A stretch of DNA of 55,901 bases from a virus (IMGVR_UViG_3300014039_000007:1-55901); one strand, 5' to 3'; numbered from the stretch's first letter, positions 4,430-55,259 are shown. Numbers and translations are program-made. Notes: a model not told the origin generated them from the sequence alone.

Positions 4430-4466
4430 AAGTTATCCGCATTAAATTGTGGGTAACTTTTTGTTT
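4430..4466 (+). terminator. rho-independent terminator
   Basis: AAGTTATCC / GGGTAACTT stem (9 bp, one G-U) followed by TTTTGTTTATTTTT. Confidence 0.7.
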
Positions 4467-4482: not shown

Positions 4483-4511
4483 TTGACATACATATTTGTA
4501 TGTGTTACAAT
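4483..4511 (+). promoter_or_regulatory. early promoter copy P1 (TTGACA-17-TACAAT, TG-extended, palindromic spacer)
   Basis: TTGACA 4483-4488, TACAAT 4506-4511, upstream A-tract. Confidence 0.75.
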
Positions 4512-4554
4512 ATACTTGTAAGTAAGAAATACATAATTTAAGGGGACAAAAAAC

Positions 4555-10849: not shown

Positions 10850-10878
10850 TTGACATACATATGTGTATGTGTTACAAT
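10850..10878 (+). promoter_or_regulatory. early promoter copy P2
   Basis: TTGACA 10850-10855, 17-nt spacer, TACAAT 10873-10878. Confidence 0.75.
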
Positions 10879-10931
10879 ATACTTGTAAGTAAGAAATGAA
10901 TAAAAATTTTGAAAGGTAAAAGGTGATTATT

Positions 10932-33783: not shown

Positions 33784-33818
33784 AAAGGCTGGAATTAATT
33801 TTCCAGCTTTTATTTTTT
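33784..33818 (+). terminator. rho-independent terminator
   Basis: GCTGGAA / TTCCAGC stem, extendable, followed by TTTTATTTTTT. Confidence 0.75.
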
Positions 33819-33836: not shown

Positions 33837-33865
33837 TTGACATACATATTTGTATGTGTTACAAT
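33837..33865 (+). promoter_or_regulatory. early promoter copy P3
   Basis: TTGACA 33837-42, TACAAT 33860-65. Confidence 0.75.
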
Positions 33866-36441: not shown

Positions 36442-36846
36442 ATGAGTAGAAGAGACAGTTTTAATTTGGCAAAAACAATTGACGAATACAAGGAATCCAA
36501 AGACCGGGAGAATGCATTGAAAAAAGTAAATGGTGCATTAAATGAATCAATTAAAGACTATATGCATGAGCATAATATGACACAAGCTGATTCAGATAAG
36601 TATACTGCCATTTTATCAATTACAGAAAAGCAGAGCCTGAATGAAGAACTTGCTATTGAGATTATCAAAGAAAATCTTAGTGGAGCTTTACTAGCTTCTG
36701 TCATTAAGCAAAAAGAATACATTGATGAAGATGCATTGGAGAAGTTGGTGTATAATGGTGACTTTGATATTAATAAGCTGACAAAAGCCAAAATCACCAA
36801 ACCAGTCAGCACTCTACGAATCACCAAAAGAAAGGATGTTAAATAA
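36442..36846 (+). CDS. hypothetical coiled-coil protein (possibly Gp157-like)
   Basis: ORF track, in-frame ATG 36442. Confidence 0.4.
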   Translation: MSRRDSFNLAKTIDEYKESKDRENALKKVNGALNESIKDYMHEHNMTQADSDKYTAILSITEKQSLNEELAIEIIKENLSGALLASVIKQKEYIDEDALEKLVYNGDFDINKLTKAKITKPVSTLRITKRKDVK

Positions 36847-37064
36847 TGATAATATGTGATAAATGCGGTAGTAGTCATATTTCTGTAGTATATAACACAT
36901 ACGCACAATCTAAAAGCAGAAGCTTCATTTGGAATACATTAATGATTTGCTGTACGTGTGGTCTTTGGTTAATATGGGCTCTTGTTAGAAAGAAGAAAGA
37001 GAAAATTATACACGAAAAAATATGTGTATGTCAAAATTGTGGTAATTCATGGAAAATATGTTAA
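36846..37064 (+). CDS. zinc-ribbon membrane protein (72 aa)
   Basis: CDKCG...CQNCG flanking a TM segment. Confidence 0.45.
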   Translation: MIICDKCGSSHISVVYNTYAQSKSRSFIWNTLMICCTCGLWLIWALVRKKKEKIIHEKICVCQNCGNSWKIC

Positions 37065-37086
37065 TGAATAAAGGAGGATGTTTAAA

Positions 37087-37680
37087 ATGGTAAAATGTAA
37101 ATGGGCAGGAGATGTAAATGACGAATACTGCAAGTGCTGTGACGGAATTACAATGGAAGTAGATGGAAATTCTATTTCATGTACAGAATGTGCAGGATAT
37201 GAGGCTGGGGAAGAAGATGCTATTTCTGATGATGTAGACATGACACCTACTGAAGCAGATAAAAGAGTTGTGGATGAAGCGGCTAAAAAGTTGAATAAAG
37301 ATTCATCTGAAGAAGAAACAGAACCTGCTGACACACAACAGAACGTCGAAATCAAGCCAAAAACAACAAAGACAACAACTACTAAGGGTGCGATTAAAAA
37401 ACCGCAAAATAAAAAGGCTACAACTGTATCTAAAGTGAAAGAAGAAAAGAAGTCAGTTGAATCTGGTGAAGAAGTGGATGGTGAGTTCAAGGTCACTTCA
37501 ATGCGATACACTTCCGGAGCAACCATTAAAAAGGGAGATAATTATTTTAAGTTTATCGCAGAAGAGGAATGGGATGTATCACATGCAAAACAAGATGTAC
37601 AGGATATACGAGAGCAGTTATGGGCTAAATTAAATGTCGAAGTAGATTCACAGATTGAAGAATTAAACAATATGGAATAA
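37087..37680 (+). CDS. hypothetical protein with N-terminal Cys4 motif and acidic then K/T-rich linker
   Basis: AAAGGAGG lies 10 nt before ATG 37087, in frame with track ORF 37078. Confidence 0.5.
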   Translation: MVKCKWAGDVNDEYCKCCDGITMEVDGNSISCTECAGYEAGEEDAISDDVDMTPTEADKRVVDEAAKKLNKDSSEEETEPADTQQNVEIKPKTTKTTTTKGAIKKPQNKKATTVSKVKEEKKSVESGEEVDGEFKVTSMRYTSGATIKKGDNYFKFIAEEEWDVSHAKQDVQDIREQLWAKLNVEVDSQIEELNNME

Positions 37681-37688
37681 AATATATG

Positions 37689-37717
37689 TTGTAATTCGAT
37701 TTAGGTTGTGTTATAAT
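37689..37717 (+). promoter_or_regulatory. promoter (TTGTAA-17-TATAAT, TG-extended) driving the structured leader
   Basis: TTGTAA 37689-94, TGTTATAAT ending at 37717. Confidence 0.6.
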
Positions 37718-37720
37718 ATA

Positions 37721-37863
37721 GTTGCGGATAAGAAATAATGAATTTAATAAAGATGACAATAATCCTTGTTATATGTGGGTGTACCTTTGTACACAACCAA
37801 ACTATATTTCTTGTCCGCAACTTGAAATTTTAGAGGTACACCGACATATAACAAGGATTTTTT
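37721..37863 (+). ncRNA. structured leader RNA with interleaved 17-bp (A/A') and 24-bp (B/B') helices and a U-tract
   Basis: A 37721-37 pairs with A' 37805-21 (one G-U). B 37761-85 pairs with B' 37835-59 (one G-G mismatch). T6 at 37858-63. Confidence 0.5.
37738..37833 (+). CDS. 31-codon hydrophobic ORF inside the structured leader
   Basis: MNLIKMTIILVICGCTFVHNQTIFLVRNLKF*. Weak SD lying inside helix A. Confidence 0.3.
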   Translation: MNLIKMTIILVICGCTFVHNQTIFLVRNLKF

Positions 37864-37879
37864 AATTGAAAGGAGAAAT

Positions 37880-38713
37880 ATGATAAAGAACGAAAACCAT
37901 ATAACAATTCAAGGGTGGATGGTTAATGAATTAAATCTAAAAGGAAATTCTTTAATCATATATTCAATAATTTATGGATTTTCACAAACAGAGGATTGTA
38001 AATTCACAGGAAGTGCAAGTTATTTAGCTGAATGGTGTGGATGCTCAAGGCAAACCGTATTGACAAATCTTAATAAACTTGTGGAAGATAATTTAATAAT
38101 AAAGCATGAAGAATTTAGAAACAATGTGAAGTTTTGCTCATATAGTGTTAATTTGACGGGATGTAAAAATTCTTTACAGGGGGATGTAAAAATTCTTTAC
38201 AGGGGGATGTCAAAAAATTTGACAGGGGGATGTCAAAATTCTTTACACAATAATATAGATAAAAACAATAGAATTAAAAATATAGATGATAATATAGATA
38301 AGAAAAATACTAAAAAGAAATCTAAAATTGATACTAAAATCGAACTTATAGAGAAGAAATGTTTAGAGTATGATTTAGAAGATGACGTTATAGAACTTTT
38401 AAGTAGATTTTTTAGAAATCTTTTAGAAAATCATAAAATGGTTACAGAGGATAAGATAAATGCAATTTTAACAAAATTGGCAAAAGTAAATACAAAAACT
38501 CAAATATCAGCAATCAAGCTATCTCTTGATAATGGATATATGAATATAGACCCGGAATGGCTACAGAACAAAAACATTTCATATGATGGTAGTGGTAAAT
38601 GTTCAAAAGAACTAGCATGGCGAACACATGAAGAAATGCAAGAAGCAGAAGAGAAAAGACAAGAGTTTTTTGAAAAAGTAAAAAATAATGACCCATCAAT
38701 ACATCATTTTTAA
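37880..38713 (+). CDS. replisome organizer / replication initiator (winged-helix N-terminus)
   Basis: N-terminal wHTH-like YLAEWCGCSRQTVLTNLNKLVEDNLI. Iterons embedded in the gene. Helicase loader and DnaB lie downstream. Confidence 0.65.
   Translation: MIKNENHITIQGWMVNELNLKGNSLIIYSIIYGFSQTEDCKFTGSASYLAEWCGCSRQTVLTNLNKLVEDNLIIKHEEFRNNVKFCSYSVNLTGCKNSLQGDVKILYRGMSKNLTGGCQNSLHNNIDKNNRIKNIDDNIDKKNTKKKSKIDTKIELIEKKCLEYDLEDDVIELLSRFFRNLLENHKMVTEDKINAILTKLAKVNTKTQISAIKLSLDNGYMNIDPEWLQNKNISYDGSGKCSKELAWRTHEEMQEAEEKRQEFFEKVKNNDPSIHHF
38158..38248. repeat. origin iterons: four tandem 22-23-bp repeats, each containing an inverted repeat
   Basis: GGGATGTAAAAATTCTTTACAGG x2, GGGATGTCAAAAAATTTGACAGG, GGGATGTCAAAATTCTTTACAC. 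AT-rich tract 38249-38345 follows. Confidence 0.8.
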
Positions 38714-38727
38714 AGGAGAAATATAAA

Positions 38728-39072
38728 ATGGCATATACAGGAACATATAAAGCTAAAGATGAATCTTATTTTAAGGAATTGATATTAAACTTCATTCCAA
38801 CAGAACCAAACAATACGAACTCAAAGCAGTTAGCAGAGTATATTGGATTAAATGCAAGAGATGTCAGATTGATTATACAGAAATTAAGAGATGATGGATA
38901 CCCTATATGCGGCACTCCGTATAACGGATACTGGATGGCAAGAACAAGCTGGGATATGAATGAAACTATGAAGAAATTACAAAATCATATAGATTCTTGT
39001 CAGATGACACTTGACGCTCTGATGGAATGTCAAAGAAAACTAAGGGAGAGTGAAAATCTTGAAGTTAAATGA
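38728..39072 (+). CDS. winged-helix DNA-binding protein
   Basis: KQLAEYIGLNARDVRLIIQKLRDDGYPI. Confidence 0.45.
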   Translation: MAYTGTYKAKDESYFKELILNFIPTEPNNTNSKQLAEYIGLNARDVRLIIQKLRDDGYPICGTPYNGYWMARTSWDMNETMKKLQNHIDSCQMTLDALMECQRKLRESENLEVK

Positions 39073-40992: not shown

Positions 40993-42005
40993 ATGGATTT
41001 AATAGAATTATTGAATCAAGAACCATCAGTAATCCCAAAAAATGCTACAGTTTTGGATAATTTTGTAAAGGCATATTCAATTATAAACAGACCACAATAC
41101 AAGACTATTTTCTGCTCAATTTCAGGCGGAAGTGATAGTGATGTTATGATGGATATTATATACAAAGTAGATGTGAATAAGAAAGTAACCTATGTATGGT
41201 TTGATACAGGGCTTGAATATGAAGCTACAAAAAGACATATTGAATATCTGGAAAAGAAGTATAATGTAAAAATCATGAGAGAGAGAGAGCTATTAAGCCT
41301 ATTCCTACAACTTGCAAGGAATATGGTCAACCGTTTTTATCCAAGGATATCTCACATTATATAGAACGATTACAAAAGAAAAATTTTGATTTTAAGGATT
41401 ATACTTATGATTATATGTTGGAGCATTTTGGAAGGCACATTGCGGAGTGGTGGTGTAATTGCAAAGTGCTTGATAGATTTAATATAGAAAGAAATTTGTA
41501 TTTGAAAGAATTTTTAATTGCACATCCCCCAAAATTTAGAATATCAAATAAATGTTGTAAGTTTGCAAAGAAAGATGTTTCTAACTCACTTATTAAAAAG
41601 TATAATGTAGATTTAATGATTATTGGTGTAAGAAAGGCAGAAGGTGGAATAAGAGCTACAGTTTATGAAAATTGTTTTTCAGAAGAATTACATGGAGCCG
41701 CACAATATAGACCTTTATGGTGGTACAATAATGAGGATAAAAAAGATTATGAAGATTATTGTGGAATCGTTCATAGCGACTGCTATAATATATATGGCTT
41801 CAAGCGGACGGGATGTTGTTGCTGTCCTTATGGCTGGGTTCACAATGAATTATTAAAAGGGTTGGAAGCAATAAGAATAAATGAACCAAAACTATATAAA
41901 GCAGTAAATACTATATTCAAAGATAGTTATGAATACACAAAGCAATACTTACAGTTTAGAAAGGAAATGAAAGACAAAGAAAAAGGAAGGAAAAGATTGT
42001 TTTAA
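40993..42005 (+). pseudogene. PAPS reductase-family PP-loop protein, frame broken in a (GA)6 run
   Basis: SISGGSDSD PP-loop. After the GA run at 41277..41289 the sense continues in frame +2 (AIKPIPTTCKEYGQPFLSKDISHYIERLQKK... into track ORF 41415..42005, with a CCCC cluster). Confidence 0.7.
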
Positions 42006-43307: not shown

Positions 43308-43336
43308 TTGACATCTATATTTGTATGTGTTACAAT
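43308..43336 (+). promoter_or_regulatory. early promoter copy P5
   Basis: TTGACA 43308-13, TACAAT 43331-36. Confidence 0.75.
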
Positions 43337-43376
43337 ATACTTGTAAGTAAGAAATACATAGAAAGAGGTAATTAAT

Positions 43377-45026: not shown

Positions 45027-47288
45027 ATGGCTTTATCATTTGCAAGACCAAAAACAAGTGATAAGAGTATAGTCCAGAAGTCTAAAACAATAATGAATAG
45101 AACAAGTATAAGGGGCGGCGGTGGTAATAACATTGCCGCTCAAATACAGTCTATAGTGGCTATTGCTAATCAAAAATTGGCAATACATAAAGATGACTAT
45201 ATTCTTATTAGAGAACCTGACCAGTTATATGAGTACATGAAAGAAATGAAACAGGTTGGGGAGGGTGCGTTAGATACAGAAACAACAGGATTAAATCCGT
45301 TACTTGTAGATATAGTAGGTGGTTGTATCTATACTCCAGGACAGAAAGCGGCTTATATTCCTATTAATCATAAATCTTATATAACAGGTGTAAGGACGAA
45401 AGACCAGTTAGATGAACAGACAGTTTCTAAGATTATGAAAGATTTCTATAAGAATATCAGATGGGTTTTTCATAATGCTAAGTATGATATCCGTGTATGT
45501 AGAAAAACATTAGGAATAGATATTCCACCTTACTGGGATACAATGTTAGCGGCTTATTGTATAGACGAAGAAGAAAGTCACAGATTAAAGGATTTACATT
45601 TAAAATATTGTGATAGTAAAGATACAGAATCTTTGACATTTGAGGCTTTATTTAAAGGTGTAACATTTGATAATATTCCTATTTCTACAGCTTATCTATA
45701 TGCCGCAGGTGACCCAATTAAGACATATGAGTTATATGAGTATCAGAAAACAATACTTAATAGAAGAGTATTATCTGGTCCTTATAATGTATTTAAGAAT
45801 ATTGAAATGCCTTTGATATCAGTTGTAGCAGATATGGAAGATAGGGGAGTATGTTTGGATTTTGATGTTTGCAAGAATCTACATGAAAAATATCATGCTA
45901 TTAGAGAAGAGCGACAGAAGCAGGCAGATGAAGCAATAGCCATGTATCAGAATGAGATTGATACTTATAAGATGAAACATCCTGATAATAAGCTGTCAGA
46001 CCCTATATCATTATCCAGTCCTACACAGCTTGCAATATTGTTTTATGATATCTTAGGATTAGAAAGTCCAGATAAAAAAGCACCTAGAGGAACAGGTGAA
46101 GATATCCTAAAACACTTTGCACAGGGCAAGGAAAAGAATATCTGTGAGGCTATTTTAGGAATGAGAAATGTTGAAAAGCTGATAGGAACTTATATTGATA
46201 AGATGCCTGAAATTGCTCTTGAAGATGGAAGAGTTCATGCAAGCTATAATCAGTATGGTGCTAAGACAGGACGATTCAGTTCACAAGACCCTAACCTACA
46301 GAATATTCCTTCACATAATAAGGAAATTAGACAGATGTTTAAGGCTCAAGACGGCTATGTGCTTATAGGTTCAGATTTTAGTCAACAAGAGCCTATGGTT
46401 ACAGCTCATTTATCCGCCGACCAGAAAATGCAGGAAGCCTTTATAAATGGAAAAGATATCTATGCTACAATAGCGGCACTTGCTTTCCATAAGCCTTATG
46501 AAGAGTGTAAAGAGTTTAGACCTGATGGAACAGTCAATCCAGCAGGTAAGGAAAGAAGAAGTCAAGCTAAGAGTATTGTATTAGGTATCTTATACGGACG
46601 ACAGATTCCTTCCATTGCAGAACAGCTTGGAGTATCTACTAAGGAAGCTCAAGCCATATATGATAAGGTTATAGCTTCCTTCCCAGCTCTTGGAAAGTTC
46701 ATTGAAGATTCCCAAAACATGGCAAGAACTGAGGGCTATGTGACTACAGCATGGGGCAGAAGAAGACATTTAAAAGATATGCAATTAGAGCCATATGAAT
46801 TTAGTTATAGTGGAAAAGTAACTAATTTTGACCCTTTAGCTTTTGGCAGTGAAGTATCTACAGAAGTTCCAAAAAAAGTAAAGGATAACTATACTAAACA
46901 GCTTCAAAAGGCTTTTGGATGGAAAAAGAAAAATGATATAATCCAAAAAGCATTAGCAGAAGGAATTAAAATTAAAGATAATGGTGGATTCATATCACAA
47001 GCAGAAAGACAATGTGTTAATGCAAGAGTACAAGGTTCAGCGGCAGACATAACAAAGCTGGCAATGATTGCTATAAACAATGATGAGAGAATGAAAGAGC
47101 TTGATTTCCATTTGCTTATACAGGTGCATGATGAAGTTATAGGTGAGTGTCTTATTGAGAATGCAAAAGAAGCAGGGGAAAGACTTTCATATCTTATGAG
47201 AACAGCACCAAGTCATTTGATTAAACTTCCATTCAAGTGTGATATTTCATACACAAGCAACTGGTATGGAGAGGAGTTGTCTATTTGA
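45027..47288 (+). CDS. polA: family A DNA polymerase (Pol I-like) with 3'-5' exonuclease domain
   Basis: DTETTGL (Exo I), KTGRFSSQDPNLQNIP, RRSQAKSIVLGILYG, QVHDEV. Confidence 0.9.
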   Translation: MALSFARPKTSDKSIVQKSKTIMNRTSIRGGGGNNIAAQIQSIVAIANQKLAIHKDDYILIREPDQLYEYMKEMKQVGEGALDTETTGLNPLLVDIVGGCIYTPGQKAAYIPINHKSYITGVRTKDQLDEQTVSKIMKDFYKNIRWVFHNAKYDIRVCRKTLGIDIPPYWDTMLAAYCIDEEESHRLKDLHLKYCDSKDTESLTFEALFKGVTFDNIPISTAYLYAAGDPIKTYELYEYQKTILNRRVLSGPYNVFKNIEMPLISVVADMEDRGVCLDFDVCKNLHEKYHAIREERQKQADEAIAMYQNEIDTYKMKHPDNKLSDPISLSSPTQLAILFYDILGLESPDKKAPRGTGEDILKHFAQGKEKNICEAILGMRNVEKLIGTYIDKMPEIALEDGRVHASYNQYGAKTGRFSSQDPNLQNIPSHNKEIRQMFKAQDGYVLIGSDFSQQEPMVTAHLSADQKMQEAFINGKDIYATIAALAFHKPYEECKEFRPDGTVNPAGKERRSQAKSIVLGILYGRQIPSIAEQLGVSTKEAQAIYDKVIASFPALGKFIEDSQNMARTEGYVTTAWGRRRHLKDMQLEPYEFSYSGKVTNFDPLAFGSEVSTEVPKKVKDNYTKQLQKAFGWKKKNDIIQKALAEGIKIKDNGGFISQAERQCVNARVQGSAADITKLAMIAINNDERMKELDFHLLIQVHDEVIGECLIENAKEAGERLSYLMRTAPSHLIKLPFKCDISYTSNWYGEELSI

Positions 47289-47356: not shown

Positions 47357-48076
47357 ATGATAGGAATTTATATTATCACAAATAAACAATCAGGAAAATT
47401 TTATATAGGTAAATCAAAAAACATAGAAGGTAGATTTGCACACCATAAAGCAGAATTAAGACATAATAATCATTATAATATTCATTTGCAACGAGCTTGG
47501 AATTTATATGGTGAGGAATCATTTGTATTCAGTGTTCTTGAAGAATGTAAAGAAGATGAATTAAACGATAAGGAAATTCATTGGATTAGTGAGTTTGGTG
47601 GTTATAAGAGTGAATTTATGTATAATCAGACAAAAGGTGGGGATGGATTAGCTTTATTTGGGGAAGATAATGGTATGTATGGAAAACATCATACACCAGA
47701 ATCTTTATTAAAAATGCATATTAAAAAAGCTGGTTCATCTTTAGGAAGTAAAAATCCAATGTATGGAAAACATCATACAATTAAAACAAAAAAGAAGATA
47801 AGTGATGCTAATAAAGGTAAGATATTATCCACAGAACAAAAGGAAAAAATTTCAAGAACATTAAAAGAAGGGTATTCTAAAGGAATTTATAAAGAAAAGC
47901 AACCAAGTAAATATACAGATGAATTTATGAAAGAATTAAGAGAAGAATATCTTAAATGTAAGTCTTTTAAGGAAGTTGCAAATAAATATAATATACCGTA
48001 TGAATGTTGTAGATGTGCAATTACATTTAATAGGACAAATGTATCAAATCAAAAATCATTGAAACGATATATTTGA
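47357..48076 (+). CDS. GIY-YIG homing endonuclease with NUMOD3-like repeats (free-standing)
   Basis: IGIYIITNKQSGKFYIGKS...RFAHH. MYGKHHT repeats. Confidence 0.85.
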   Translation: MIGIYIITNKQSGKFYIGKSKNIEGRFAHHKAELRHNNHYNIHLQRAWNLYGEESFVFSVLEECKEDELNDKEIHWISEFGGYKSEFMYNQTKGGDGLALFGEDNGMYGKHHTPESLLKMHIKKAGSSLGSKNPMYGKHHTIKTKKKISDANKGKILSTEQKEKISRTLKEGYSKGIYKEKQPSKYTDEFMKELREEYLKCKSFKEVANKYNIPYECCRCAITFNRTNVSNQKSLKRYI

Positions 48077-48714: not shown

Positions 48715-49629
48715 ATGGATCTATATTTTGCATCAAGTGGAAACAAAGATATGGAAATATTGCTTGAAACAAAGCATTGCCACAGACTGTTTACACAGCT
48801 TGAAAAATCATCTATAAAGCGTTGTATTGAAATGAAAACCAGGCATAATCCAGCAAAGTTATTTATAGATTCTGGCGCATTTACAGCATGGACGAAAGGA
48901 ATACAAATTGATGTAGATAAATATATTGATTATATAAATGGTCTTGATGATAAAATAACAATATGCGCTCAAGTTGATTGTATTCCGGGCACATTTGGTG
49001 GGGTAAGAACACAAAAAGAAATAGAAGAATCTCCTATTAAAAGTTGGGAAAATTATCTGTATATGAAAGATAAATTAAAATCTAGGGATAAATTGATTCC
49101 TGTATTTCATCAGGAGGAAAGTTTTGAGCATTTGAAAAAAATGCTTGAATATAGACATTCAGATGGTACACCAATAGCATATGTTGGTATATCACCTAGT
49201 AATGATAGGTCACAGTCAGATAAAGAAGATTTTATTGCAAGAAGTTTTTATATTATAAAACATAGTTCAAACCCTAATGTAAAAACTCACGCATTTGGAA
49301 TGACAAACTTATCAATATTAGAGAGGTATCCTTATACATCTGCTGACAGTACATCCTGGAAAATGTCAGCGGCATTTGGTAGCATAATGACAAGATTAGG
49401 AACAATAGTAATAAGTTCTGAACAATTAAAGGATAAAAAGCATATTGAATATATGCCAAAAAGTGTTAAAGATTATGTTAAGTCTGAATGCTTGAAATAT
49501 GATATTGATTATGATATGTTATACACTGATTTTTGCACAAGGGCAAAATTTAATATAAATTATCTTAAAGACTGGGCAGATAACTATGAGTATAAACCTG
49601 TCACAGTTCATAAGAAGTCATTATTCTAA
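48715..49629 (+). CDS. dpdA: DpdA-like DNA-guanine transglycosylase (TGT superfamily)
   Basis: Motif pattern LFIDSGAFTAWTKGIQIDVDKYIDYI ... THAFGMT ... YTSADSTSW recalled from phage DpdA proteins. Adjacent to yhhQ. Confidence 0.6.
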   Translation: MDLYFASSGNKDMEILLETKHCHRLFTQLEKSSIKRCIEMKTRHNPAKLFIDSGAFTAWTKGIQIDVDKYIDYINGLDDKITICAQVDCIPGTFGGVRTQKEIEESPIKSWENYLYMKDKLKSRDKLIPVFHQEESFEHLKKMLEYRHSDGTPIAYVGISPSNDRSQSDKEDFIARSFYIIKHSSNPNVKTHAFGMTNLSILERYPYTSADSTSWKMSAAFGSIMTRLGTIVISSEQLKDKKHIEYMPKSVKDYVKSECLKYDIDYDMLYTDFCTRAKFNINYLKDWADNYEYKPVTVHKKSLF

Positions 49630-54117: not shown

Positions 54118-54156
54118 GTATGCACCTTATAGAAATATAGGGTGCATATTTTTTTG
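54118..54156 (+). terminator. rho-independent terminator
   Basis: ATGCACC / GGTGCAT stem, extendable, followed by TTTTTTT. Confidence 0.8.
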
Positions 54157-54461: not shown

Positions 54462-55259
54462 ATGAGCAGAAGATTATTAAACTTGATAAACAACAATCAG
54501 CCAGAACTTCCAGCAAATAAGAAGTTCTTATCTGATGTTATGAGCTGTATTGAAAGAATGGAGCAGGAAGGTAGAAGAAAAGGAAGCAATTATTATAAGC
54601 CATCTTCCTTACATTGTATGAGAAATATGTATTTTACAAGAACAAAAGCCCCAACTGACCCAGAGGTTGTAGAATATAATTCCACAGGAATGGCGGATAC
54701 TGGTACAGACAGACATGAAAGAATACAGAATGTATTATTACATATGCAGGAGATGGGATATGATTGGAAATATCTTGATGTTGCTGAATATGTTAAACAG
54801 AAACAGAAGTTTGGAAAATGTAAATCCTTGATTGTAAAAGGTACACAGGGAGCAGAAACACATCTTATAGATACTGTATTAAATCTATCTTTTAGATGTG
54901 ATGGTATCATAAGGAGAATATCTACAAATGAGGATTATCTCTTTGAGTTTAAGAATGTTGTATCATTCAAATTTAATCAGTTAGATAATCATTGCTTGGA
55001 ACAACATCATAATCAGGTTATCTGTTACTGCACAGCTTTAGACTTAGATAAGGCTTTTGTTACTTACGAAAATCGTGATATATGCACGCTTGAAGTTCCT
55101 GAAGTATTTGAAGTTACACAGGATATGAAGAACTGGCTTGTGAATTATATAAGCGAATGTGAGGGCTATGTGGAAAGAATGATAGCACCTCCAAGAACAG
55201 AAGATACAAAGAATTGTAAATATTGCCCTTATAAGGGAATATGTAGAAAGGTGGGATAA
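54462..55259 (+). CDS. Cas4/RecB-like PD-(D/E)XK exonuclease with Cys cluster
   Basis: N-terminal Cys (SSLHCMRN) plus C-terminal CKYCPYKGIC. RCDGII...LFEFKNV nuclease core. Confidence 0.65.
   Translation: MSRRLLNLINNNQPELPANKKFLSDVMSCIERMEQEGRRKGSNYYKPSSLHCMRNMYFTRTKAPTDPEVVEYNSTGMADTGTDRHERIQNVLLHMQEMGYDWKYLDVAEYVKQKQKFGKCKSLIVKGTQGAETHLIDTVLNLSFRCDGIIRRISTNEDYLFEFKNVVSFKFNQLDNHCLEQHHNQVICYCTALDLDKAFVTYENRDICTLEVPEVFEVTQDMKNWLVNYISECEGYVERMIAPPRTEDTKNCKYCPYKGICRKVG

Follow-up and report, generated by a model that had tools for sequence, protein, structure and literature searches.

Introduction

The rep mRNA leaders of the plasmids pT181, pIP501 and pAMbeta1 are controlled by countertranscript-driven transcriptional attenuation. 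In phages, the lambda nutR/tR1 and HK022 put RNAs modify RNA polymerase, with N or directly. To our knowledge, RNA switches that gate replication genes in cis are familiar from Gram-positive plasmids and P4-like elements and have hardly been described for virulent phages of gut Clostridia. The P4 CI RNA, the P1/P7 c4 RNA and the Gifsy-1 IsrK RNA, grouped in the Rfam C4 family, are same-strand, leader-derived RNAs complementary to their own transcript (PMC4825925). With P4 CI RNA, premature termination blocks the phage replication genes, and IsrK occurs as a terminated short form and a read-through form (PMC4825925).

We analyzed a 55,901-nt stretch of DNA (IMGVR_UViG_3300014039_000007:1-55901; hereafter the window), in appearance a near-complete ~56 kb genome of an uncultured phage whose genes lie essentially all on the + strand. 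Ahead of its replication organizer gene is a leader that is strongly supported as a real structured RNA. Our favored reading, held with somewhat more confidence than doubt, is that the leader is a non-coding + strand RNA serving as a two-state transcription attenuator of the replication-initiation operon (organizer, DnaC-like and DnaB-like genes).

Results

Genome context

The replication unit of the window opens with an organizer gene whose product carries an HTH_36 domain (SD AAGGAG at 37870-37875, ATG at 37880, 37870-38713 in all, + strand), which is the first gene dependent on read-through of the leader. The unit continues with genes for an HTH protein, a loader resembling DnaC and a helicase resembling DnaB, with PAPS-reductase-like ORFs and with a primase gene. 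Other products of the phage genome are a DNA polymerase, an SSB, a clamp-like factor and a recombinase similar to UvsX. Neither an integrase nor a repressor turned up among the window ORFs scanned, and since the genes also lie all on one strand, a role in lysogenic immunity is unlikely; the phage appears to be virulent.

Relatives came from human-gut metagenomes and from one contig of an 'uncultured Clostridia' MAG. The large terminase shared only ~50% identity with that of Blautia phage Montmirail. GenBank phages yielded no homologous leader; the sole DNA similarity there was an 82-nt patch within the organizer gene (37907-37988), which 69 Flavobacterium columnare phages share at 81-83% identity.

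The gene immediately 5' of the leader (37078-37680) encodes a conserved 200-aa protein of unassigned function and occupied this position at every locus where that side was fetched. In this protein, a variable low-complexity linker separates an N-terminal Cys-rich zinc ribbon from a highly conserved C-terminal domain of sheet plus helix; it has 1,217 metagenomic homologues. Considered as an RNA-binding partner, it had no sequence match in PHROG, Pfam or the PDB. Its AlphaFold model had a mean pLDDT of 59 (~83 in the C-terminal sheet-plus-helix), and Foldseek searches against the PDB and BFVD gave no match at E ≤ 0.001.

Further downstream, two adjacent ORFs ~50 nt apart (40993-41364 and 41415-42005), the first matching part of a PAPS-reductase-like family, may be one split or interrupted gene. 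A GIY-YIG homing-endonuclease gene (47357-48076) directly follows the family A DNA polymerase gene (45027-47288). A DpdA-type gene, queuine tRNA-ribosyltransferase-like, at 48715-49629 hints at 7-deazaguanine DNA modification; a Cas4-like exonuclease gene lies at 54462-55259.

Promoters

A sigma-A type promoter lies on the + strand at 37689-37717, with a -35 of TTGTAA (37689-37694), a 17-nt spacer and an extended -10, TGTTATAAT (TGtTATAAT, 37709-37717). It scored a 10/12 match plus the TG extension. With a canonical discriminator assumed, the transcription start is predicted at ~37724, so RNA derived from this promoter would lack the first 3 bp of helix A:A', described below; these 3 bp also covary among relatives. 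The promoter was in an identical position in all relatives checked other than one variant, found in L015, L024 and L049 (one IMG/VR contig) and in L045 (a separate metagenome contig), in which the -10 has been lost to a 16-nt deletion between two GTTG repeats and the leader RNA is kept in full. Retention of the whole RNA in a promoter-less variant argues that the element acts on transcripts arriving from upstream, and also that the terminator is not fully efficient and read-through is substantial.

The T-run and the organizer ATG are separated by 16 nt (37864-37879) that contain no promoter, and the next strong + strand promoter downstream is at 43308. The genes from organizer to primase, having no promoter of their own before 43308, therefore need read-through. 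No antisense promoter in the leader was conserved in position across subtypes, the minus-strand sites being weak (8-10 of 12) and scattered among them, in agreement with the initial annotation, which had found no convincing one.

Other strong promoters in the window, of the form TTGACA, 17 nt, TGTTACAAT, are usually preceded by a terminator, whereas the order at the leader is promoter, RNA, terminator, gene. One such promoter plus 5'-UTR cassette occurs three times (4483-4530, 10850-10897 and 43308-43355), each with TTGACA, a 17-nt spacer and TGTTACAAT, and a 28-nt block of TGTTACAAT plus ATACTTGTAAGTAAGAAAT is identical across the three. Further similar consensus promoters are at 33837, 35838 and 54176. 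Strong terminator-like hairpins with T-runs lie immediately 5' of consensus promoters at ~4430-4462, 33785-33818 and 54120-54155; they mark the boundaries of terminator-promoter units, in an order opposite to that of the leader.

Leader structure

The 5' arm of helix A (37721-37737, GTTGCGGATAAGAAATA) pairs with A' (37805-37821, TATTTCTTGTCCGCAAC) over 17 bp with one U.G (U37729.G37813). An inverted-repeat search returned these arms as 37720-37737 and 37805-37822, 18 nt and 94% complementary. Helix B, the 5' arm of the terminator hairpin (37761-37786), pairs with B' (37834-37859), and in this core the sole mismatch is G37777.G37843, the counterpart of an A-U pair in half of the family; here the inverted-repeat search gave arms at 37758-37786 and 37834-37862, 29 nt and 93% complementary. 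Apart from its partner, each helix arm is unique in the 55.9-kb window, even with 3 mismatches allowed.

Together with the U-tract T6 (37858-37863), B:B' is a predicted intrinsic terminator, its 3' part spanning 37834-37863 on the + strand, with a 26-bp stem, a computed duplex energy of -41 kcal/mol and the U-rich tract immediately after the stem. A T-run of 5-7 nt follows B:B' in 29 of 29 distinct leaders. The 47-nt loop, within which A' lies, is atypical of terminators, which is why a simple terminator scan (loops of 3-8 nt) misses the hairpin. Predicted 3' ends at ~37863-37868 give an RNA of ~140 nt.

A single-stranded motif, AAUUUAAUA (37741-37749, placed by alignment), occupies the linker from A to hairpin P2. 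This motif is kept in most type 1 leaders, replaced by AAUUAAAUA in types 3 and 4, and absent in L034. P2 (37753-37772) pairs AUGACAA (37753-37759) with UUGUUAU (37766-37772) at the base of B, and so provides a decoy for the terminator 5' arm. Hairpin H (37779-37794) pairs GUGUAC (37779-37784) of distal B, across a CUUU loop, with GUACAC (37789-37794) and is a decoy for that distal part. The 31-codon ORF MNLIKMTIILVICGCTFVHNQTIFLVRNLKF (37738-37833, + strand) is not conserved, and we judged it a chance ORF inside the RNA.

Most of these elements had been marked in the initial annotation, and all of its coordinates were found again in the sequence: the promoter with TTGTAA at 37689-37694, its 17-nt spacer, its -10 ending at 37717 and a start at ~37724; the 17-bp A/A' helix with its one G-U; the long B/B' helix with its one G-G mismatch, for which we use the core given above; T6 followed by the SD and the organizer ATG; GTGTAC and its local partner GTACAC, predicted here to form H; and the ORF opening at ATG 37738, whose stop codon abuts B'. 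Folding of the region, which had been suggested as a check, gave a minimum free energy of -44.4 kcal/mol for + strand RNA 37718-37870 (z = -6.4), and none of 200 dinucleotide shuffles was as stable.

Two further repeats were noted around the leader. A pairing between the promoter spacer and the region after H (37701-37711 with 37791-37801) was set aside as a by-product of the extended -10 and hairpin H, only its TGTGT/ACACA core recurring in relatives. The 10-mer CATATAACAA of B' (37845-37854), complementary to B (37766-37775), occurs again at 37898-37907, 18 nt into the organizer gene. As other initiator types lack the 10-mer, this repeat is probably a coincidence of codons (H/Y-I-T-I-Q).

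Homologous leaders and covariation

Three kinds of search, seeded with the organizer protein, with the upstream protein and with conserved DNA patterns, recovered 29 distinct homologous leaders from related uncultured human-gut phages. A covariance model built from 22 leaders found exactly one copy per phage contig. Type 1 leaders scored 134-155 bits and the divergent types 3 and 4 scored 55-61 bits; the window scored 152 bits on the + strand versus 56 bits on the - strand. A pattern search of IMG/VR with the conserved base of B and the T-run returned the same phage group and one new subtype, L087, and nothing else.

For the covariation analysis, arms were excised in register from 21 distinct arm sets of types 1, 1v and 3. 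Standard pairs occupied 95.9% of cells, versus 36-46% when the 3' partner was slid by 1-3 columns. Two-sided changes were seen at 22 pairs (A:A', 14 of 17; B:B', 8 of 27), and none of 500 shuffles reached the observed values. RNAalifold on the natural alignment recovered B:B', and where types 3 and 4 have A in place of T at the base of B, B' has the matching change. At least nine sequence variants of A/A' were present, always complementary (e.g., GTTGCGGATAAGAAATA, GTTGCGATTGAATAATA, TTTGCGAGGTAGAA, GTAGTATAGACAGGTAA, TTTGGTATGAACAGGTAAA and TGTTGTGGGAGAGAAAAAAGA), and L087 and L094 contained further A/A' sequences that were perfectly complementary. The non-Watson-Crick cells comprised 39 G.U on the + strand, in 13 column/type combinations, versus 3 A.C. 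This bias toward + strand wobbles indicates a + strand RNA and not a feature of duplex DNA. Both helices were thus conserved in relatives with compensatory changes, an outcome on which the initial annotation had staked its pairings, and the pattern of substitution demonstrates, at the level of sequence, selection on A:A' and B:B' as RNA pairings.

Searches of Rfam 15 gave no named family, consistent with the initial annotation, which had recognized none. For window positions 36500-39000, the best cmscan match was mir-466 at 22 bits, below the threshold of 85 (E = 0.49). No family reached its gathering threshold in the window region, including C4, riboswitch aptamers and the T-box, and leaders of types 1v, 2a, 2b and 3 had sub-threshold matches only.

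Competing folds

We folded six representative transcripts up to the start of B' (prefix folds) and at full length. In all six prefix folds, A:A' closed a three-way junction holding P2 and H. Full-length folds gave B:B' as the minimum free energy structure (-40 to -46.5 kcal/mol), and the junction state (-32.5 to -37.7 kcal/mol) lay consistently 6-9 kcal/mol above it. For the window, the junction (state 1) had ~-37 kcal/mol and the 26-bp terminator (state 2) ~-44 kcal/mol, state 2 being thermodynamically favored.

P2 and H were both predicted inside A:A' in 25 of 25 type 1 leaders. The 5' arm of P2 is a copy of UAUAACAA of B' and the 3' arm of H is a copy of GUACAC of B', so each half of B has a local decoy, and with an alternative partner for each half, the leader has two mutually exclusive folds. 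In L056 and L083, distal B changed from GGTGTACC to GGTGTGTC (GTGTGT), its partner in H changed to ACACAC through a substitution and an AC insertion, and B' changed to GGCACA. Both alternative pairings of the same nucleotides are, as aligned, restored by different mutations, and this lineage is the single one with double-compensatory support for H. The loop of H varied from 4 to 7 nt among leaders. Variants of the P2 5' arm within type 1 (AUGACAA and AUAACGA) were wobble-compatible only, and the P2 equivalent in types 3 and 4 was weak or in a different register. Conserved pairings on the terminator 5' arm that exclude the terminator were therefore found in P2 and H, the evidence for P2 consisting of conservation and wobbles. 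A full pseudoknot of A:A' plus B:B' could also form, in which case P2 and H could be mere folding intermediates; the coexistence of the two long helices was judged by geometric reasoning only.

Cassette exchange

One leader type preceded at least six different first genes, with N-termini MIKNENxITIQGW, MSVIRVEKTKNYT, MITDLLSTDGFII, MENVNIKKEETFI, MLSLNEDIYAD and MQSLNDKYISIQG. Conversely, organizers 85-87% identical to that of the window sat behind a different RNA cassette, type 2. L066 was identical to L064/L065 up to the -10, where a switch from type 1 to type 2b occurred. This switch and the shared leaders place the module boundaries at the -10 and at the T-run/SD, and exact exchange between -10 and SD ahead of varied first genes implies that the module is self-contained. 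Judging from these junctions, the module is swapped among phages independently of flanking genes.

Leaders of types 2a and 2b occupied the site of window positions 37681-37879, behind the same promoter, in L001-L004, L007-L010, L013, L014, L016, L057-L065, L067-L072, L075-L080 and L099. Type 2 scored 26-28 bits with the covariance model, which is no detectable homology. Its structure was a 5' hairpin followed by a hairpin of GAUAUUAGG, UUGGCGGA and CUUAAUAUC with a duplicated 3' arm, ending in a long terminator, AAAUAAGUUAUACA...UGUAUAGCUUAUUU plus a U-run, whose apical loop (CCGCCA) complements a UGGCGG lying upstream. Compensatory changes were present among 2a, 2b and L099. In prefix folds of type 2a, an upstream segment paired with the terminator 5' arm.

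Discussion

Attenuation of the replication operon

The initial annotation had suggested a translation- or structure-controlled terminator gating the replication module. The structural half of that suggestion held, given the covariation, the T5-T7 run in 29 of 29 leaders, the lack of a promoter before the ATG and the alternative folds; the translational half fell with the ORF, which is not conserved. In the mechanism that we propose, P2 and H would form first during transcription and hide B. The emerging A' would then pair with the 5'-terminal A and lock the three-way junction (state 1). To form the 26-bp terminator (state 2), B' would have to invade P2 and H inside the loop closed by A:A', with candidate toeholds in the H loop (CCUUU with AGAGG) and the P2 loop (AAUCC with GGAUU), and to wind ~2.5 turns round the loop-held strand while its own 3' end was still in the polymerase. 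Because of this topological obstacle, the A:A' clamp is expected to favor read-through and its loss to favor termination. With the clamp on, RNA polymerase would read into the organizer gene. With the clamp prevented or opened, B:B' would form, transcription would stop at the predicted ~37863-37868, and a stable RNA of ~140 nt would be released.

Several inputs could set the clamp. In order of preference, the candidates are the released leader, working in trans on nascent A or A', an RNA-binding protein of phage or host, and simple kinetic partitioning; input from a ribosome, an antisense RNA or a metabolite is disfavored. A short-word BLAST of the leader against the 55.9-kb window for trans targets returned only chance matches of 11-12 nt. 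A tentative extension of the first candidate, which we consider fairly unlikely, is that the leader is a self-sensing, sense-strand regulator: the terminated ~140-nt RNA would accumulate with genome copy number, pair via the fast-evolving A or A' with nascent leaders of the same type, keep the clamp from forming and so force termination before the replication-initiation genes. If true, the leader would time or dose replication in a lytic gut phage by means of an RNA and would also determine incompatibility or superinfection, which would account for the circulation of at least nine A/A' variants and several types of cassette among otherwise similar phages in the same metagenomes.

Alternative explanations

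One alternative is a stand-alone small RNA gene (promoter, RNA and terminator), in which a stable A:A' plus B:B' pseudoknot would act in trans on host or phage RNA or protein, or on the nascent leader in a self-targeting version, and read-through would be leakage. The promoter is strong and conserved, the terminator is conserved, the cassette is exchanged as a unit from -10 to SD, and the paired 5' end and long 3' hairpin predict high stability; A:A' is also the most variable part yet complementary, like specificity determinants in RNA-based immunity, and P4 CI RNA and IsrK offer a precedent for self-targeting (PMC4825925). It fits less well that the 55.9-kb genome offers no other site of extended complementarity (off-site, matches reach 12 nt at best, a chance level), that the RNA is kept in the promoter-less variant and that the downstream replication genes are without a promoter of their own. 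Moreover, a static pseudoknot leaves the selection on decoy H unexplained, and the RNA's own A would compete for A'. We regard this reading as unlikely, though deserving of real weight. The region could instead be a constitutive leaky terminator combined with a processing or stability element, with B:B' as an RNase III substrate, a paired 5' end that stabilizes the replication mRNA, and no switch. RNase III sites between genes are known in phage early transcripts (T7, SP82), the duplex is long and nearly perfect, and the 5'-terminal nucleotides are sequestered in A:A'. This is improbable, however, as it does not account for the conserved decoys of both B halves or for the concerted change of B, H and B' in L056/L083, and a processing site has no need of an invariant U-tract right after the stem.

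A three-way junction (A:A' as P1, P2 and H) that overlaps an expression platform, with the conserved AAUUUAAUA in a junction strand, also resembles a riboswitch, which would bind a small molecule and control the B:B' terminator. But a P1 of 14-19 bp is far too stable for ligand dependence, the junction strands vary by subtype (the motif is missing from L034, and the strand between H and A' is different in the L020 group and in types 3 and 4), and no Rfam aptamer matched. No unpaired nucleotides of a would-be ligand pocket were conserved in all members, and we find the riboswitch quite improbable. An element acting as DNA (an origin of replication, a cruciform or paired operators bound by a protein) would suit a position adjoining the initiator gene, the operator-like GTGTAC-N4-GTACAC and the overlap of A with the transcription start. 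We consider it very improbable, given that mismatches are nearly all + strand G.U (39 versus 3), that the H half-sites lie 4 to 7 nt apart, a variation that a hairpin tolerates and a dimer operator would not, and that GC skew is uniformly positive with no feature at the leader. Nor does the element co-vary with initiator type: one leader type is found with at least six first genes, near-identical organizers have different leader types, and no iterons were found. Finally, the 31-codon ORF might encode a leader peptide controlling the terminator or, as the initial annotation had proposed as its second reading, a type I toxin. It is present in the window with its stop abutting B', and the peptide has a hydrophobic stretch. 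Among relatives, nevertheless, L035, the closest, is the only one to keep its ATG and frame; an ATG ORF of at least 10 codons is lacking in 11 of 29 leaders and the remaining ORFs are unrelated, substitutions track base-pairing and not codon structure, the SD is weak, and there is no conserved antisense promoter. Because the ORF survives only in the window and L035, we rejected both the peptide and the toxin readings, to which we assign next to no likelihood.

Significance

The leader family is abundant, the adjacent gene having >1,200 metagenome homologues, and is carried as an exchangeable cassette. Its covariation is unusually clean for two interleaved long helices and is joined by evidence of competing folds. 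Under the attenuator reading, the leader offers a compact model for co-transcriptional folding in which a long-range 5' clamp would control an intrinsic terminator, and for the timing and dosing of replication initiation in uncultured phages, possibly extending to RNA-based incompatibility of co-infecting phages. It could also readily be proposed as a new Rfam family.

Comparison with known systems

As in trp and erm attenuators and type I toxin-antitoxin loci, alternative helices overlap a terminator and the window sequence has a short ORF, but this ORF is not conserved and there is no antisense RNA gene. What lambda nutR/tR1 and HK022 put share with the leader is the placing of a cis RNA element and a terminator after an early promoter and ahead of the replication genes, and a need for read-through. 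In those systems there is no nucleotide competition with the terminator, whereas here the decoys and the terminator share segment B. With the P4, P1 and Gifsy-1 RNAs, the leader has in common that regulator and target would be on one strand and in one transcription unit. It differs from them in having no Rfam match, C4 included, at E ≤ 10, in belonging to a phage without an integrase or repressor among the scanned ORFs, and in its predicted intrinsic terminator; action in trans is here a proposal only.

The rep-leader attenuators of pT181, pIP501 and pAMbeta1 belong to plasmids and not to a phage, and the phage leader has no conserved antisense promoter. It would, moreover, pre-empt the terminator through two local decoys and a 5' clamp that acts on the terminator loop, not on its arm. 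By analogy, the leader would work most like the pT181/pIP501 attenuators, without a countertranscript: in each case the leader of an initiator gene in a Gram-positive replicon carries an intrinsic terminator (predicted in the phage) just 5' of the rep RBS, an upstream pairing would pre-empt that terminator, and the outcome would set the dose of the initiator.
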